Source: Escherichia virus TH22. From it: a stretch of DNA of 64,000 nucleotides. The stretch is taken from the sequence record MT446396.1. One strand, 5' to 3'. This document shows, piece after piece, positions 32,492 through 37,937 of the stretch; the stretch's first letter is position 1, and each line of letters starts with the position of its first letter. The notes beneath the pieces are model-generated. The model saw only the letters and a program-made list of their open reading frames with translations, was not told where the DNA came from and searched no databases. Both the position numbers and the translations under genes were made by a program.

Positions 32492-33915
32492 AAACTATTT
32501 TATCCCAGCTACTCTTTAACAAGGAATATTTTGTTAAAGTCTGGCCATATCTGAATAGCACATATTTTGAAAAGGGTCCCGCGAAGACCCTTTTTAATAC
32601 GATTAACGAACACGTAAAAGAATATCAAGCTGTACCAACTAAGACTGCACTTGATATTGCACTTGACAACTCTGACCTTTCTGAAGTCGAATATGAAGGC
32701 ACAAAGAAACTTTTAGGAGTCCTGGCCGATACTCCAGAAGACCAGGAATGGTTGGTTAGAGAAACCGAAAAGTATGTACAGAAGTCTGCGATGTTCAATG
32801 CCACATCCAGGATTATCGAAATCCAGAGTAATGCCGAACTTCCTAAAGATAAACGTGATAAACGAATCCCGGATATCGGTGCTATCCCTGACATCATGCG
32901 TGATGCATTGTCCATCTGTTTTGATTCTGCCCTTGGTCATGACTGGTTAAACGATTACGAGGCTCGATTCCAGACTTATCTGAACAAATCGAAGAAAGTT
33001 CCGTTCCGCATTAACATCCTGAATAAAATTACGAAAGGCGGGGTTGAGTACGGTACAGAGAACGTTTTACTAGCCGGGACGAATGTCGGTAAATCTCTGG
33101 GGCTTTGTTCGTTAGCGGCTGACTATCTTCAGACTGGTCATAACGTTCTTTATATAAGCATGGAAATGGCCGAAGAAGTATGTGCCAAACGTATTGATGC
33201 CAACTTGCTGGATGTATCTCTGGATGATATTGATGAAGGTCATATATCATGGGCGGAATATAAAGCTAAGATGGAAAAATGGCGTGCTTCCGGGACTCTC
33301 GGGACTCTGAAGATAAAACAATATCCAACTGGTGGTGCTCATGCGGATACCTTCCGTGCATTACTGAACGAGTACAAACTGAAGCAAGGGTTTGTACCGG
33401 ATGTGATTATTGTTGACTACCTGGCAATCTGTGCAAGCTCAAGACTGAAAACGTTTACCGAAAACAGTTACGGCCTGATTAAGATGGTTGCAGAAGAACT
33501 TCGTGGTCTGGCAGTTGAGAAAAATGTGGTCTTGTGGACTGCAGCGCAGACAACCAGGGGCGCGAACGTTGCAGCCGAGATTGATATGGCTGACATTGCA
33601 GAATCCTTTGGTATTGCTCACACGGCTGACTTTATGCTGGGTGTTGTTGAGACCGAAGAATTCGCTCAAATGGGGCTGCAGTTAATCAAACAGCTTAAGT
33701 CTCGTTATGGTGATAAGAACTACTATAATAAATTCAAGATGGGTGTTAAGAAAGGTAATCAGCGCTGGTATGAGGTTGATGATGATTCGGCTCCTAAACA
33801 AGGCCCTACGGTTAAAGAAGCCACCGGTGAGATGAATCGCCAGGCCGAAATGAATCGACAAACCAGGGTCAACAGGAGCGACCTGGATGACCTTGCTGCT
33901 CAAATGAAATTTTAA
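32485..33915 (+). CDS. 41: replicative DNA helicase gp41 (DnaB-like)
   Basis: 476 aa from GTG with AAGAGG SD; Walker A GTNVGKS; collinear with T4 gp41. Confidence 0.9.
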   Translation: MVETILSQLLFNKEYFVKVWPYLNSTYFEKGPAKTLFNTINEHVKEYQAVPTKTALDIALDNSDLSEVEYEGTKKLLGVLADTPEDQEWLVRETEKYVQKSAMFNATSRIIEIQSNAELPKDKRDKRIPDIGAIPDIMRDALSICFDSALGHDWLNDYEARFQTYLNKSKKVPFRINILNKITKGGVEYGTENVLLAGTNVGKSLGLCSLAADYLQTGHNVLYISMEMAEEVCAKRIDANLLDVSLDDIDEGHISWAEYKAKMEKWRASGTLGTLKIKQYPTGGAHADTFRALLNEYKLKQGFVPDVIIVDYLAICASSRLKTFTENSYGLIKMVAEELRGLAVEKNVVLWTAAQTTRGANVAAEIDMADIAESFGIAHTADFMLGVVETEEFAQMGLQLIKQLKSRYGDKNYYNKFKMGVKKGNQRWYEVDDDSAPKQGPTVKEATGEMNRQAEMNRQTRVNRSDLDDLAAQMKF

Positions 33916-33925
33916 AATATTTTAA

Positions 33926-33949
33926 AAGGGGCTTACGGCCCCTTTTTCT
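33926..33949 (+). terminator. intrinsic terminator
   Basis: GGGGCTTACGGCCCC hairpin + TTTTT. Confidence 0.65.
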
Positions 33950-33986
33950 TATGTTATAATGACCCTATCAACTACTGGAGAATAAA
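33950..33986 (+). promoter_or_regulatory. early promoter with family-A leader
   Basis: TATAAT 33955-33960 then CTATCAACTACTGGAG. Confidence 0.5.
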
Positions 33987-34304
33987 ATGAAAACTATTGA
34001 TTGCAAGGCGGAATACAAAGTTTATTATCATGGCTCAAGCTCTAATGCTGGAATCCAAAATATGCTTTGCCCTCCTGATGCAACTGGTGTTCTGTCAGAA
34101 GTTGGGCGTAAGAAAAATTTAGGGCGTGTGTTTTTTACTGAAGATATTGGTTTGGCGCGTATCTATGCAGGAAGAGCAGCTCGCTCATATGGAGGAGAAC
34201 CCCGTCTTTATCGTGTGATTGCACCTGTTGACGTGGTTTGTTTAAATGATACTAAAGGCGCAACCGTTTATCACGCCGCCTGGGCCTTCTGTGAGGAAAT
34301 CTAA
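33987..34304 (+). CDS. hypothetical protein with PARP-like HGS / G-x-[VI]-[FY]-F-[AT]-[DE] motifs
   Basis: 105 aa; YYHGSSSNAGI ... GRVFFTEDIGLARIY resembles the NAD-binding signature of H-Y-E class ADP-ribosyltransferases; too short for a full catalytic domain. Confidence 0.4.
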   Translation: MKTIDCKAEYKVYYHGSSSNAGIQNMLCPPDATGVLSEVGRKKNLGRVFFTEDIGLARIYAGRAARSYGGEPRLYRVIAPVDVVCLNDTKGATVYHAAWAFCEEI

Positions 34305-34508
34305 ATGTATAAATTAGAGAACGTAGTGTTTATTGGTTGGTTTGAAAATGGTAATATGTTTACCAAAGAAACCGCGCTGGATGTTAGTGACCAAAATATG
34401 ATTGAATGGGTTACAGTGCAGTATGCAGAAGTGAATAATGCGCTGGTTAAAGCCTTTGTTAATGACAATAAAGTTTTTGAATATGATGCCCGCATTGAGG
34501 AAATTTAA
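34305..34508 (+). CDS. hypothetical small protein (Dmd-like by size/position only)
   Basis: 67 aa in the 41-61 interval where T4 carries dmd. Confidence 0.25.
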   Translation: MYKLENVVFIGWFENGNMFTKETALDVSDQNMIEWVTVQYAEVNNALVKAFVNDNKVFEYDARIEEI

Positions 34509-34748
34509 ATGAATATCACATTAATGAAACCTACCCCTAGTTCTTTTTGGAATAAATCTTTTGGTAAGCATAATATGTTTATCCAACGCACCGTAAGCAG
34601 CTGGGAACTAGTTCTTTCGGAAGACCATGGCGGTTATGAACAAGAATACGTAGAGTTCTTCGAATTTCCTGTGAAACCTACCAAGCGTCAGATTCGTCAG
34701 ACAAAACGCAAATTCCGTAAAATTTATCTGGAAGATGCATTAAAATAG
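34509..34748 (+). CDS. hypothetical protein with basic C-terminal tail (PTKRQIR)
   Basis: 79 aa; tail motif shared with ORF 35901..36122. Confidence 0.3.
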   Translation: MNITLMKPTPSSFWNKSFGKHNMFIQRTVSSWELVLSEDHGGYEQEYVEFFEFPVKPTKRQIRQTKRKFRKIYLEDALK

Positions 34749-34805
34749 TGTACAACAAAGGGATAATGCTGTATATTATCCATATCAACTACTGAGGAGA
34801 TTGAA
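34748..34805 (+). promoter_or_regulatory. early promoter with family-A leader
   Basis: GTGTACA, TATATTAT, CCATATCAACTACTGAGGAG. Confidence 0.5.
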
Positions 34806-35099
34806 ATGAAAAAGTTATTAATCGCGGCAATTCTTACCGTAGCATCATGTGGTACAGCTCCAGTTACTGCTGGACTTGATAAAAACCTTTGTGAGTGGTC
34901 TATGACTGCGGACCAAACTGATGTTGAAACTCAAATTCGCGCTGACATCATGAATATTACTAAACGTGACCGCCCTGATATGGTTAAAGAAGTATCTGAC
35001 CAATTGACTTCTGGTGACGTTATGCAGTATAACTATGTTCTGTATTGCGATGCTTCATTTGACAATAGCAAAATTGTTCAATGGGTTACAGGTGAATAA
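34806..35099 (+). CDS. sp: Spackle-like periplasmic superinfection-exclusion protein
   Basis: 97 aa, signal peptide (LTVASCG); size and position (61.3 slot between 41 and 61) match T4 Sp. Confidence 0.5.
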   Translation: MKKLLIAAILTVASCGTAPVTAGLDKNLCEWSMTADQTDVETQIRADIMNITKRDRPDMVKEVSDQLTSGDVMQYNYVLYCDASFDNSKIVQWVTGE

Positions 35100-35100
35100 A

Positions 35101-35538
35101 ATGATTAACAGAAATTTGGTTATCAAAAAACTTCGTTGTAAAAATCCAAATGCGCAGGCATACAGGGTGTTTTGGAGCGACGAAATTCAATATCTGGGTT
35201 ATTTTCTTGTTGATAGTGATGATAGAATTACGTTTGCTCATAAACTTCTTAACAAAGAATTAAACCATTGGAAAGAACTTATTGCAGTCAAGTCTAAATT
35301 ATTTTCGCGCAATACAATGCACCAATTGGTTTATTTTTTCGCTGATGGTATTCCTGACAAGGTTGAGTTTGAAGGGTTTGAATTTAAAGACATCAACCCT
35401 GACAATGAATTGAATGACAGTATTGTTAATATGGGTATCCCTGGCAAGTACATCAAAAACAGTCTTTTGAAAATTCTGGAAAATCCTGTTTATTCAGTTG
35501 ACGACCAGATTTTTAATGCCTTCATGAAGCGAGATTAG
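35101..35538 (+). CDS. hypothetical protein
   Basis: 145 aa; C-terminus DDQIFNAFMKRD repeated in next ORF. Confidence 0.35.
   Translation: MINRNLVIKKLRCKNPNAQAYRVFWSDEIQYLGYFLVDSDDRITFAHKLLNKELNHWKELIAVKSKLFSRNTMHQLVYFFADGIPDKVEFEGFEFKDINPDNELNDSIVNMGIPGKYIKNSLLKILENPVYSVDDQIFNAFMKRD
35499..35536 (+). repeat. 36-38 bp direct repeat, copy 1
   Basis: GACGACCAGATTTTTAATGCCTTCATGAAGCGAGATTAG; near-identical to 35860..35897. Confidence 0.8.
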
Positions 35539-35539
35539 T

Positions 35540-35899
35540 ATGAGTTATTATAATTTTCTGAATTTTGAACTGGTGAGCAATAATAATGGTAATGCTCACT
35601 ATGAATTTCGTGAGCCCCGTTATAATCAGGCGATTGGTTATATCATCGTTAAAGATGGTGTTATCATAAAGGCTCGTTCGTTTATGACAATGAATGGGCC
35701 TTGTGAAGATAATCGTGGTTATCCATTTGATAAAAAGAACGTACGCGATTGTGCAGTATGGATAACCGGAAACCCTGAAATTGGGGTCATGATATCTACT
35801 GAAGCAAATGACATTCTGGAAGGGGCTTGGGTTAAAGCTCAAGAACCGCCTACTGATATTGATGACCAGATTTTTAATGCCTTCATGAAGCGAGGTTAA
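35540..35899 (+). CDS. hypothetical protein (bracketed by direct repeats)
   Basis: 119-aa ORF ending DDQIFNAFMKRG. Confidence 0.35.
   Translation: MSYYNFLNFELVSNNNGNAHYEFREPRYNQAIGYIIVKDGVIIKARSFMTMNGPCEDNRGYPFDKKNVRDCAVWITGNPEIGVMISTEANDILEGAWVKAQEPPTDIDDQIFNAFMKRG
35860..35897 (+). repeat. 36-38 bp direct repeat, copy 2
   Basis: GATGACCAGATTTTTAATGCCTTCATGAAGCGAGGTTAA. Confidence 0.8.
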
Positions 35900-35900
35900 T

Positions 35901-36122
35901 ATGTTTGTTTTGACCCAATTCTCTAAAGCAATATATAGTTACTCTTGTCAGTGGGAAGTCTTTATTGATACTCCGTCTCCCAAGTATGGAGTTTTTGGAC
36001 GAGTAACTACTCAAGCTTATGTTGCACGACCGACCAAACGTCAGATTCGTAAACTTAAAAAGGCACATCGTCAATTGATTAAAAGAAGGGAACAATATGA
36101 GTGCAATGTGTACGGGCTCTAA
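35901..36122 (+). CDS. hypothetical protein with basic C-terminal tail (PTKRQIR)
   Basis: 73-aa ORF. Confidence 0.3.
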   Translation: MFVLTQFSKAIYSYSCQWEVFIDTPSPKYGVFGRVTTQAYVARPTKRQIRKLKKAHRQLIKRREQYECNVYGL

Positions 36123-36288
36123 GATTTCGGTCTTCCAGATTTTTGAAGAATATGAAATCGTGTCGCAAGACCAAGAAGCAATCCATGTTATCGCTGATGA
36201 TGGTGTTACCTGGATTATTCCGTTGTATCATGAAGACACTTATGAAGTGACTGATGCAAATGGTGATAAAGCTATCTTCGTTGTATAA
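36097..36288 (+). CDS. hypothetical acidic protein
   Basis: 63-aa ORF. Confidence 0.3.
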   Translation: MSAMCTGSKISVFQIFEEYEIVSQDQEAIHVIADDGVTWIIPLYHEDTYEVTDANGDKAIFVV

Positions 36289-36291
36289 ATA
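36284..36291 (+). promoter_or_regulatory. T4-type late promoter core TATAAATA
   Basis: exact TATAAATA 17 nt upstream of a small ORF. Confidence 0.4.
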
Positions 36292-36307
36292 GCGGAAAGG
36301 GGGTGTT

Positions 36308-36475
36308 ATGAAAACATTCAAAGATTTTATCAACGAAGATATGGCTGCCGGTGATGCAGGTGGAAACCCAACTAATATCGCAACAGGTACCACTTCCGGG
36401 GCAGTTGTCAATAAAGGCCCTGAACAAATCCCATCAAAAAAGCGTAAGAATAAAGACGATAAACCTACAGTATAA
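36308..36475 (+). CDS. hypothetical small Gly/Lys-rich protein
   Basis: 55 aa with GGGGTG-containing SD; followed by hairpin; below track cutoff. Confidence 0.3.
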   Translation: MKTFKDFINEDMAAGDAGGNPTNIATGTTSGAVVNKGPEQIPSKKRKNKDDKPTV

Positions 36476-36507
36476 TGGTCCTTCGGGGCCATTGAAATGA
36501 GGAAACT

Positions 36508-37536
36508 ATGTCATATATTGATAGAGAATTTGCAGTCAGAGCTTTATCGTATCAACCACGTTATAGAGAAGTCACCGGGAGCACATTTAAGGCAAACTGT
36601 CGTTGCAAGGTTTGTGGTGACTCCCAGAAAGATTCGCACAAGGCTCGATTCTGGGCGTATACCAATCCGTCTGATGGTGCGGTTTACGTGAAATGTTTTA
36701 ACTGTGACTACTCCACGCATATAAGCAAATACATAAAAGAGTTTGAGCCGGATTTGCACCGGGAATATATGGTTGAGAAGTACAAGGAAAACGCCTTCGG
36801 TCGACAACGTAATGAAGTTGCAGAAGCTCCGAAAGAACAAGAAAAAACTCCGGTTATTGAAGAGCTTGCTTTTTGCGAAAGAATCGATACTTTACCAGAA
36901 GCGCATCCGATAGTTAAGTATGTGAAAAGTCGGTGTATTCCGAGCAATGTTTGGAACCGGTTATGGTTTACAAACAAATGGCCTGCATTAGTTAACTCCG
37001 TTAATCCTGGGACGTATAAGAATGAAACGAATGAACCACGCTTGGTTATTCCTATCTTCAACGGCAAAAAAGAAATCGAATCTTTCCAAGGACGAGCTCT
37101 TCGCAAAGATGCACCACAAAAATATATCACAATCAAAGCTCACCCAGAAGCTTCCAAAGTCTATGGCGTAGACAAGATTGATGAGCGCAAGCGCGTGTGG
37201 GTAATGGAAGGTCCGATTGATAGTTTGTTTATCCCTAACAGCATTGCGATAACCGGTGGAACATTAGCATTGGAAGCCGTTCCTTATGCTGAAACCCGAG
37301 TATGGGTAATGGACAACGAGCCAAGACATCCGGATACGATTAAACGTATGAAGAAGCTCGTTGAAGCGGGTGAAGCCGTTATGTTCTGGGACAATGCACC
37401 ATGGCATACGAAAGACATAAATGAGATGGTTAAATCGGAGGGCGCAACCCCTGAACAAATCGAATCATATATGGCCGATAACATTGCTCAAGGGTTGATG
37501 GCGAGAATGCGACTTTCGAAGTACGCAAAAGTTTAG
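36508..37536 (+). CDS. 61: DNA primase gp61
   Basis: 342 aa; N-terminal Zn ribbon CRCKVCG...CFNCD, TOPRIM-like EGPIDSLF / VMDNEP. Confidence 0.9.
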   Translation: MSYIDREFAVRALSYQPRYREVTGSTFKANCRCKVCGDSQKDSHKARFWAYTNPSDGAVYVKCFNCDYSTHISKYIKEFEPDLHREYMVEKYKENAFGRQRNEVAEAPKEQEKTPVIEELAFCERIDTLPEAHPIVKYVKSRCIPSNVWNRLWFTNKWPALVNSVNPGTYKNETNEPRLVIPIFNGKKEIESFQGRALRKDAPQKYITIKAHPEASKVYGVDKIDERKRVWVMEGPIDSLFIPNSIAITGGTLALEAVPYAETRVWVMDNEPRHPDTIKRMKKLVEAGEAVMFWDNAPWHTKDINEMVKSEGATPEQIESYMADNIAQGLMARMRLSKYAKV

Positions 37537-37654: not shown

Positions 37655-37852
37655 CTATATAAGGCCGATTAATGCCAGTAAAATATCTACAACTGATTCG
37701 AGTGCAATGACTGGTAATATAACACCATGTGTCAATGCAACAGGGGCAACAACGAAGTTCCAGAGTAGAACTAAACAGAGTATCGAAAGGACCAGAATCG
37801 TTCGCTTACGACTGCCTTTGATGGCTTGAATTAGACTAGATAGTTTGAGCAT
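37655..37852 (-). CDS. hypothetical small membrane protein (opposite strand)
   Basis: 65 aa from ATG with GGAGGA SD (track ORF 37655..37882 -); two hydrophobic helices; CATAAATA late-promoter-like element upstream on the - strand. Confidence 0.4.
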   Translation of the reverse strand: MLKLSSLIQAIKGSRKRTILVLSILCLVLLWNFVVAPVALTHGVILPVIALESVVDILLALIGLI

Positions 37853-37879
37853 ATATCCTCCTTCCGTGTATTTATGCTT

Positions 37880-37937
37880 CAAACCAATATGATATAATTA
37901 ACATACAAAATAACATGAATTGATAAGGAAAAATATA
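37880..37937 (+). promoter_or_regulatory. promoter upstream of gene 56
   Basis: TATAAT at 37893-37898. Confidence 0.4.

Follow-up and report, generated by a model that had tools for sequence, protein, structure and literature searches.

What is the stretch of small genes that separates genes 41 and 61 in Escherichia virus TH22, and does it arm the phage against the defences of its host? In the 64,000 nucleotides (nt) analysed here from record MT446396.1 (the window), the stretch runs from the stop codon of gene 41 (position 33915) to the start of gene 61 (position 36508), an island of 2,592 bases (33916-36507) flanked by uvsX and genes 40, 41 and 61. An earlier note, made from the bare sequence, had proposed it as a candidate anti-defence hotspot. 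We conclude, with a probability of about 80%, that it is the Gaprivervirus version of the "anti-TA (toxin-antitoxin) / exclusion" island that T-even phages carry between genes 41 and 61. The hotspot proposal is right but not new, because the dmd-tifA-adfA region of T4 was already said in 2022 to be one that "may be an anti-TA island", in a study that renamed 61.4 as tifA and listed dmd, tifA and adfA (61.2) as island members (Srikant et al. 2022, PMC9391042). What survives of the proposal is that Dmd, TifA and Spackle are present and that gene content is variable; what falls is the novelty, the lineage assigned to the phage and the claim that most of the open reading frames (ORFs) are unrecognisable.

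Nine consecutive plus-strand ORFs, the number given in the earlier note, fill positions 33987-36475 and are called here O1 to O9 from left to right (Table 1). The conclusion is carried first by O2, O3 and O4. O2, previously described only as Dmd-sized, scores 73.6 bits against PF17587 (cutoff 27; E 1.6e-20), above the Pfam gathering score, matches the PDB entries 5i8j (1.1e-21) and 5hy3 (7.2e-17), and shares 56% identity with T4 Dmd. Its tested homologues make it a predicted antitoxin-like inhibitor that binds and blocks RNase toxins of the RnlA/LsoA type. The earlier suspicion that O4 is a Spackle-like signal-peptide protein is confirmed: PF25676 covers residues 1-96 with 146.5 bits (E 3.6e-43), identity to T4 Sp is 66%, PDB entry 6x6o is matched, and behind the N-terminal signal peptide the mature domain (residues 23-97) matches residues 1-75 of the solved structure 7cn6. 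Homology predicts that O4 inhibits, in the periplasm, the gp5 tail lysozyme of a superinfecting phage, that is, that it mediates superinfection exclusion.

O3 and O7 had been paired before by a common basic PTKRQIR tail, and both proved to be members of DUF7279 (PF23945), the TifA family. O3 scores 69.4 bits (cutoff 24.5; E 2.4e-19), falls in phrog_2375 and is 45% identical to T4 gp61.4. In TifA, a basic C-terminal helix capped by Pro-Thr binds RNA, the P53A/T54A and K55A/R56A/R59A mutants no longer bind RNA or inhibit ToxN, and the choice between ToxN proteins probably depends on a variable loop (Guegler et al. 2023, PMC10853763). The motif P-T-K-R-Q-I-R of O3 (PTKRQIRQTKRKFRK) corresponds to these functionally tested residues P53, T54, K55, R56 and R59, and O3 is by this homology a predicted TifA that would use the PT-capped helix to bind RNA and trap ToxN. 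The same seven residues are exact in O7 (PTKRQIRKLKKAHRQLIKRR), and the remainder of the two proteins differs. O7 scores 72.2 bits against the same model (E 3.3e-20) and belongs to another family, phrog_3272; its N-terminal half is divergent, its match to O3 extends over only about 20 residues, and it has 69 close orthologues among phage records. We read O7 as a predicted second TifA, with the same RNA-binding helix and a different specificity region, which probably covers another type III toxin.

The T4 island consists of exactly dmd, 61.4, sp, 61.2 and 61.1. Mapping against it gave T4 orthologues for four of the nine ORFs (Dmd, TifA, Spackle and gp61.1), and O1, O5, O6, O7 and O8 are absent from the island of T4, so the island does hold lineage-specific content. 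Its proteins are less anonymous than had been supposed: Pfam families account for five of the nine, O1 makes a sixth with its clear ADP-ribosyltransferase (ART) fold, and a seventh is the orthologue of gp61.1. The lineage had also been misjudged. The phage had been grouped with the RB49-like phages, but it shares its island at 100% identity with the Escherichia phages UPEC07 and TH55, related coliphages form a group at about 95% identity, and UPEC07 and VR25 are classified in the Tevenvirinae, genus Gaprivervirus; the phage is a T4-like Gaprivervirus.

All nine ORFs are short, 55-145 amino acids (aa), and several out-of-frame or antisense ORFs of similar size lie in the same stretch, as might be the case if some of the nine were chance open frames and not genes. 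However, every one of them matches a PHROG family (E 4.7e-26 or better), the six whose distribution was searched (O1, O2 and O5 to O8) recur in 69 to about 800 phage records each, and they are packed on one strand, abutting or overlapping with gaps of -26 to 71 nt and with a purine-rich Shine-Dalgarno sequence ahead of each. Because of these matches, this recurrence and this packing we treat all nine as genes, and chance frames among them are extremely improbable. For the fifth, the conserved start is the ATG at 35101 (MINRN...) and not the upstream GTG at 35014.

Table 1. Features of the island between genes 41 and 61 (positions in the window).
Feature	Position	Strand	Description
Stem-loop and T-run (predicted terminator)	33924-33946	+	directly after gene 41; terminator scan, 10 pairs; folding energy (dG) -16.0, z -3.45
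Early promoter P1	33931-33986	+	-35 GCTTAC 33931-33936; 18-nt spacer; -10 TATAAT 33955-33960; leader CTATCAACTACTGGAGAA; Shine-Dalgarno
O1	33987-34304	+	105 aa; proposed minimal ADP-ribosyltransferase (ART)
O2	34305-34508	+	Dmd
O3	34509-34748	+	79 aa; TifA (gp61.4)
Early promoter P2	34748-34805	+	-35 GTGTAC 34748-34753; -10 TATATT 34772-34777; leader ATATCAACTACTGAGGAG; no stem-loop
O4	34806-35099	+	Spackle (Sp)
O5	35101-35538	+	145 aa; AdfA-like cassette protein
Direct repeat, copy 1	35498-35542	+	tail codons, stop codon, next ATG
O6	35540-35899	+	119 aa; AdfA-like cassette protein
Direct repeat, copy 2	35859-35903	+	93% identical to copy 1
O7	35901-36122	+	73 aa; predicted second TifA-family paralogue
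O8	36097-36288	+	63 aa; acidic protein, no assigned function
Inverted repeat	36273-36290 / 36324-36341	+	encloses TATAAATA (36284-36291), O9 ribosome-binding site and ATG
O9	36308-36475	+	55 aa; gp61.1
UUCG-loop hairpin, 9 bp	36473-36494	+	between O9 and gene 61; dG -12.8, z -2.55

If the island corresponds to that of T4, what stands in the place of adfA? The slot between sp and 61.1 begins with O5 and O6, whose duplicated 3' ends, noticed before, are a 45-nt direct repeat with its copies 361 nt apart, each spanning a stop codon and the next ATG. O6, bracketed by the copies, is exactly the gene that phage JS98 lacks. The repeat encodes the peptide [IV]DDQIFNAFMKR[GD] (in its wider form [IV]DDQIFNAFM[KN]R[GD], or DDQIFNAFMxRx), which is also the C-terminus of T4 AdfA: O5 ends in VDDQIFNAFMKRD, the C-terminal tail of AdfA, and O6 in IDDQIFNAFMKRG, with 12 of 13 residues matching the T4 protein. 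O5 and O6 have therefore both the C-terminal peptide and the position that mark AdfA. Genes with this tail end in ...R-G/D, stop, ATG, and the Shine-Dalgarno sequence of the following gene lies inside their last codons. A scan with the back-translated pattern found the peptide at 16 IMG/VR loci, all of them in this island, on three types of body, AdfA (208-216 aa), O5-type (145 aa) and O6-type (117-119 aa, two subtypes), which occur as AdfA alone, AdfA with an O6-type gene, O6-type alone, O5 alone or O5 with O6. O5 belongs to phrog_8539 and was found in 85 phage records under Escherichia, Shigella, Salmonella and Yersinia names, Dhakavirus and Gaprivervirus included; O6 belongs to phrog_4122 and was found, as two subtypes, in 332 phage records.

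These shared ends could be recombination scars, kept as DNA on bodies that are unrelated in sequence and function. The copies are nearly identical as DNA and the rest of the genes shows no similarity, the repeat covers the stop codon and the next ATG, the presence or absence of O6 falls exactly between the copies, and profiles trimmed of the tail are not significantly similar. Between T4 and the window, however, several synonymous third positions of the tail codons differ (CAA/CAG, GCT/GCC, TTT/TTC) and DDQIFNAFM is unchanged, so the peptide appears to be under selection and the repeat to be more than a DNA joint. Moreover, the Pfam model of AdfA (PF23813) includes the tail; the AF2 model of O6 (pLDDT 80) shows a core of beta-sheet plus helices, a disordered linker (residues 101-106) and the tail as a separate terminal helix (residues 107-117); and the core matches models taken to be those of AdfA and O5 with TMq above 0.5. 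Scars on unrelated bodies are, in our judgement, unlikely.

The structural matches came from Foldseek searches with the O6 model against viral models, in which three hits were relevant: a 157-aa protein of phage fPS-65 (E 1.3e-4, TMq 0.55), a 145-aa protein of VR25 (E 1.6e-4, TMq 0.61) and a 212-aa protein (E 7.9e-4, TMq 0.52); against the PDB, the modelled fold had no meaningful match. We take the first to be the AdfA of fPS-65, whose gene in the adfA slot encodes 157 aa that are 98% identical to residues 52-208 of T4 AdfA, and we equate the second, going by nothing more than phage and length, with VR25_038, the orthologue of O5. The fPS-65 gene (locus L025, 1736-2209, minus strand) lacks residues 1-51, either by N-terminal truncation or by an issue with the annotated start codon.

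Several results weigh against kinship of O5 and O6 with AdfA. In whole-protein comparison with PF23813, O6 reached 20.7 bits against a cutoff of 27, over tail residues 106-119 only, and O5 gave no hit. A phmmer search with O6 over 1.84 billion representative proteins produced seven hits, its own small family and two repetitive giants, and no AdfA. With the tail trimmed, the hhalign probability was 0.6% for O5 and AdfA and a weak 10-22% for O6 and AdfA, and the Foldseek E-values of about 1e-4 include amino-acid terms from the shared tail. Sequence and models together suggest that O5, O6 and AdfA are probably one fold family with a common terminal helix, the tail contributing to the scores. AdfA inhibits the DarT1 toxin by direct binding and requires a His at position 164. 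By analogy, our best guess is that O5 and O6 would most likely act as stoichiometric toxin binders of the AdfA kind, on other targets. A more speculative and unlikely extension is that the tail is a portable docking helix that turns small bodies (AdfA, O5, O6) into inhibitors sharing one partner. The predicted occurrence of a portable AdfA tail on three protein bodies seems to go beyond the literature searched.

Three other ideas about these genes were dropped. That O5 is a diverged AdfA by sequence was suggested by a BLAST match of 32% over 88 aa, which is driven by the shared tail and disappears in the trimmed comparison. AdfA as an internal duplication with O6 as one unit is suggestive by eye, but hhalign gave only 5-22%, and we do not claim it. 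The tail as a clamp-binding, PIP-like motif does not fit in its hydrophobic spacing.

Ahead of dmd lies O1, and the question is what an enzyme would do there. Sequence-level searches of Pfam, NCBIfam, PDB profiles and PADLOC found no match for it, but most of its fold-search matches are ARTs. In an alignment of 29 sequences, 52-87% identical to O1, the residues H15, G16, R41, N44, F49, T51, D53, Y60, R63, G91 and A92 are invariant and E103 is conserved in at least 90%. F49 and Y60 are 11 residues apart, as are the two tyrosines of diphtheria toxin. We propose that O1 is a minimal ART of the H-Y-E (H-Y-[EDQ]) clade with the triad H15, F49/Y60 and E103, an assignment made by comparison with the diphtheria toxin residues H21/Y54/Y65/E148 and not on superposition. 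Relatives of O1, mostly at 60-90% identity, occur in 609 phage records with Escherichia, Klebsiella, Acinetobacter, Aeromonas and Vibrio among the host names. As an enzyme O1 is not new: it fits by position, host range and fold the "p0068-family" ART of the HY-[EDQ] clade, predicted from sequence beside Dmd in Escherichia, Shigella and Salmonella phages, and the ART-Dmd pair has been proposed to be a phage toxin-antitoxin system (Iyer et al. 2022, PMC9503650). A literature search for "p0068" returned nothing relevant.

Could O1 and Dmd then be a phage-borne type II pair, an ART toxin held in check by Dmd? Besides the published proposal (PMC9503650), the stop codon of O1 abuts the start of dmd in the window (TAAATG), in RB69 their ends share 4 nt, the junction sequence of the window is found again between dmd and tifA, and the pair is present in Mosig-, Dhaka- and Gaprivervirus phages. 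The distributions tell otherwise. The 609 ART records include Klebsiella (116), Acinetobacter (68) and Aeromonas (62) phage names, none of which appear among the phage names listed for the 797 records with Dmd; several hundred phages with the ART have no detectable Dmd, and Escherichia-phage records number about 595 for Dmd against 215 for the ART. Single genomes break the pair as well: in KP27, 44RR2.8t and an Acinetobacter phage, Pfam does not recognise the neighbour of the ART as Dmd; in the SP18-like locus L021, which has a gp61 96% identical to that of the window, the ART stands beside a secreted protein of 188 aa and the island contains no dmd; and the T4 island has Dmd and no ART. Neither the survey of records nor the individual genomes revealed consistent co-occurrence, and since the distributions overlap only in part and single genomes break the pairing, the pair is not obligate; we think it quite unlikely that O1 and Dmd form a toxin-antitoxin system. 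We favour O1 as an effector enzyme that works independently. AcrIF11 offers the nearest working analogy: in the manner of that protein, O1 would act as an active minimal ART that modifies a host or defence target.

O8, which overlaps the end of O7 by 26 nt, has an isoelectric point of 4.1 and belongs to phrog_3249. It shares 66% identity with RB69 ORF033c, and 260 phage records contain it. A 24-nt direct repeat (35640-35663 and 36185-36208, 79% identical) encodes IIVKDGV in O6 and VIADDGV in O8, a weak hint, at the level of sequence, of a motif common to O8 and the AdfA-like proteins.

The last gene, O9, raises the question of why a protein resembling the capsid should lie in such an island. 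It is 73% identical to T4 gp61.1 and has a Lys-rich tail. In its leader, MKTFKDFINE, six of ten residues agree with the capsid targeting sequence of T4 IPII/IPIII, MKTYQEFIAE, and its residues 2-38 align ungapped to residues 57-93 of gp23, taken from T4 gene 23 (L028), with 19 of 37 identical. The prohead protease gp21 cleaves gp23 after Glu65, at L-x-E; the alignment spans this site (E65↓A66), setting E10 of O9 on E65 and I8 on L63. A hidden Markov model of the gp61.1 family, run against 4,120 ORF fragments of the window and the comparison loci, recovered 61.1 orthologues and, as the sole non-self match, gp23 (E 6.5e-8); the IPII/IPIII leaders came next, non-significant. The tripeptide [ILMV]-x-E stands directly before [DE][MI]VAGD in 14 of 15 gp61.1 clusters and in the 92-aa version of RB69, also in members with a wholly unlike leader; the remaining cluster is truncated, beginning at MVAGD, and lacks the site region. 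The gp61.1 leader has in this way the [LI]-x-E end expected of a gp21 substrate, resembling a capsid targeting sequence or the cleavage site of gp23.

O9 had also been described as driven by a late promoter, and position and conservation bear this out. The sequence TATAAATA lies 16 nt before O9 and precedes 61.1 in window-type and JS98-type loci, in the latter despite different flanks; it is absent in T4, where adfA abuts 61.1. A point against the late promoter is that TATAAATA is not enriched in the window, with 5 copies against 4.7 expected. It forms part of the 5' arm of the inverted repeat around the O9 start, whose fold (dG -23.6, z -3.5) was equalled in stability by none of 200 shuffles. 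This fold resembles those of T4 e and soc, of which only late transcripts are translated, a likeness weakened by the JS98-type sequence, which folds differently at the gp61.1 start.

Taken together, gp61.1 would be made late from its own promoter and, by analogy with gp23 and the internal proteins, would be cleaved by the prohead protease at I-N-E↓D. We offer as a doubtful possibility that gp61.1, produced late, imitates the maturation site and N-arm of gp23. It could (a) enter the prohead, where gp21 would cut it at I-N-E↓D, and be injected as a small basic peptide together with the DNA, or (b) remain in the cytoplasm and, as a decoy, divert host sensors, or the protease, that recognise this segment of gp23. 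If true, the anti-TA island would harbour a peptide derived from the capsid that works in counter-defence or in the timing of assembly. In the literature searched no paper was found that links 61.1 to the capsid targeting sequence or to gp23 (there was one false hit, in a DOI), and the gp23-like nature suggested by the alignment seems to go beyond it; automatic annotation has noticed the likeness, as the UniRef name of the T6 homologue is "Major capsid domain-containing protein". The idea that gp61.1 mimics the Gol peptide was rejected: similarity ends at gp23 residue 93, at about which Gol presumably begins. In RB69, 61.1 is 92 aa with a different N-terminal half, and in RB69-like contigs (L014, 2700-3167, and L016) ORF032c is fused to 61.1, giving a 155-aa protein.

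How would these genes be expressed? Three promoter cassettes had been placed in the island, at 33926, 34748 and 36471. The first two (P1 and P2) hold, as members of an early promoter and leader family with eight copies in the window, all on the plus strand, against 0.02 expected by chance. The pattern is GTGTACA, N17-18, TATAAT, CCATCAACTACTGAGGAG, N6-8, ATG, and the copies lie at 2535, 16519, 33965, 34782, 38784, 41222, 45360 and 56415; P1 is a direct repeat of 34772-34812 (families D2 and D6). In three of the eight, the -35 element is inside or beside a GC stem-loop of the PeSL type. At the left edge of the island, the -35 GCTTAC of P1 sits in the loop of the stem-loop after gene 41, which is both a predicted terminator and the stem-loop half of a PeSL-type cassette. 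The third cassette does not hold: at 36471 there is a hairpin and not a promoter, without a -35 element or MotA box and not called by the promoter scan, and its TATAAT overlaps the stop codon of O9. An Rfam search of the island gave only a sub-threshold hit, on the terminator hairpin. With this arrangement, P1 would drive O1, Dmd and TifA, and P2 would drive Sp, O5, O6, O7 and O8, straight after infection.

Hyperplastic regions and their promoter/stem-loop cassettes were described by Comeau and Krisch, and the PeSL elements of Arbiol, Comeau and Krisch were tied to gene gain and loss in such regions (PMC2839356, PMC4122927). Cassette P1 has the features of these elements: a terminator stem-loop with an early promoter, repeated, and bordering variable genes. 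The island itself, called hyperplastic in the earlier note, deserves the word, with gene content that varies between T4, RB69, JS98, VR25, L021 and the window. From 41 to 61, T4 has Dmd, TifA, Sp, AdfA and 61.1; RB69 has 041c, ART, Dmd, TifA, imm.1, imm, Sp, AdfA, 033c, 032c and 61.1; JS98 has ART, Dmd, a 46-aa ORF, TifA, Sp, O5, TifA2, O8 and 61.1; VR25 has a 100-aa ORF, ART, Dmd, a 110-aa ORF, TifA (98 aa), Sp, O5, O6, TifA2, O8 and 61.1; and L021 has a 100-aa ORF, ART, a 188-aa ORF, Sp, O5, TifA2, O8 and 61.1. Architectures differ among these phages and the loci L019 and L023, also within one genus. The GC content over O5 and O6 (35000-35800) is 0.33-0.36, against 0.42-0.46 in genes 41 and 61, and a junction repeat, GAGGAAATYTAAATG, is found at both O1/O2 and O2/O3. 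We envisage that whole genes would be swapped by recombination at the repeated promoter cassettes and at the conserved stop/start junctions (the 45-nt tail repeat and GAGGAAATYTAAATG).

Several details of these loci are recorded here for completeness. In VR25 (L026, 3186-3811, minus strand) the 110-aa ORF between dmd and sp has a Dmd-like stretch (HNAKVEAFVNGK), and the 98-aa TifA, with a C-terminal extension, is in place of the 79-aa TifA of the window. In L021 (11522-12750, minus strand) the 188-aa signal-peptide protein replaces dmd and tifA, and the 100-aa ORF precedes the ART; neither of the two proteins matched Pfam or PADLOC. In the GenBank record of UPEC07 (MW250787; L001, 2572-5060) the names "clamp loader subunit DNA polymerase", "DNA polymerase", "nucleotidyltransferase" and "periplasmic rIV" misfit genes whose true identities are ART, TifA, the TifA paralogue and Spackle. 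Just downstream of gene 61 in the window lies a 75-aa hydrophobic ORF (37655-37882, minus strand), of which a shorter version is annotated in UPEC07.

How much of the island, then, serves counter-defence? O5, O6, O8, the ART O1 and gp61.1 are candidates for such roles. Against the reading of the whole island as a counter-defence locus it must be said that the roles of O1, O5, O6, O7, O8 and O9 are inferred, and that membership in a family does not guarantee activity. The natural AdfA of RB69 does not neutralise DarT1, which bears on O5 and O6, and several natural TifA homologues from other phages were inactive on every ToxN tested, which bears on O3 and O7 and is the reason why the second specificity of O7 stays an inference. 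O1, O5, O6, O8 and 61.1 might instead have ordinary accessory or morphogenetic tasks, lie in a hyperplastic region by chance and play no part against defences. Such regions hold accessory genes of many kinds (PMC2839356, PMC4122927), RB69 carries imm and imm.1 in its island, gp61.1 looks capsid-related, O1 stays at 60-90% identity in phages of widely different hosts, an unusual degree of conservation for a counter-defence gene that evolves fast, and none of the five matches PADLOC. On the other side, three or four genes with a proven role in counter-defence or exclusion lie next to them, O5 and O6 share the tail and the slot of AdfA, and turnover between phages of one genus is rapid. An ordinary accessory role for all five is in our judgement rather improbable, and we keep to the counter-defence and exclusion island of the T-even phages.

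The general picture is already published, and the island of this phage leaves it unchanged. T-even phages are the main model for immunity based on toxin-antitoxin systems and are common in phage-therapy collections. In the island, one small locus stacks several counter-measures, which are swapped gene by gene between near-identical phages, and this helps to explain differences in host range. The candidates of note are the 105-aa ART found in about 600 phage genomes, the second TifA, the putative capsid-protein mimic, and O5 and O6, as AdfA-like proteins that may cover toxins that AdfA does not.

Compared with known systems, the closest is the T4 anti-TA island (PMC9391042), which has the same position, the order Dmd, TifA, Sp, the adfA slot and 61.1, and an early promoter ahead of dmd. 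It has five genes, however, against nine in TH22, which adds the ART upstream of dmd, a second TifA and O8, and in which two shorter genes sharing the tail replace adfA. As with TifA of T4 (PMC10853763), O3 and O7 pass the Pfam threshold and P-T-K-R-x-x-R opens their basic C-terminal helix; unlike it, O7 is separated from dmd and falls in another PHROG, and no T4-group phage studied so far has been reported to have two copies. O5 and O6 have in common with AdfA (T4 gp61.2, PF23813) the slot, a near-identical C-terminal peptide and the same stop/start junction, and perhaps, by the Foldseek match of the O6 model to a model taken to be AdfA, the fold; they differ from it in length (145 and 119 aa against 208-216 aa), have no significant profile similarity outside the tail, and cannot be aligned at the position of His164. 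O1 resembles the minimal H-Y-E ARTs (AcrIF11, Arr and the NAD lobe of Tpt1/KptA) in its small size, its conserved HG[ST] motif, aromatic pair and C-terminal Glu, and in being phage-encoded beside counter-defence genes, whereas its 105 aa are shorter than the matched chains of Arr (140 residues) and AcrF11 (137 residues) and its conservation across hosts far exceeds that of known anti-CRISPR ARTs. The cassette shares with PeSL elements (PMC2839356, PMC4122927) the stem-loop and early promoter at the left edge of the island, the dispersal in eight copies and the adjoining variable genes; here, however, the conserved part extends through the 5' leader and the Shine-Dalgarno sequence, only three of eight copies have the stem-loop, and the window also uses a second type of joint, made of coding tails and stop/start junctions. 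Finally, gp61.1 is like the T4 internal proteins IPI, IPII and IPIII and the gp23 site in its leader, in the conserved [ILMV]-x-E and in the alignment to gp23 57-93; it is unlike them in that only about 45 aa would be left after cleavage and in that its gene lies in an island of early genes, and the versions of the RB69 type carry a long, different N-terminal extension.

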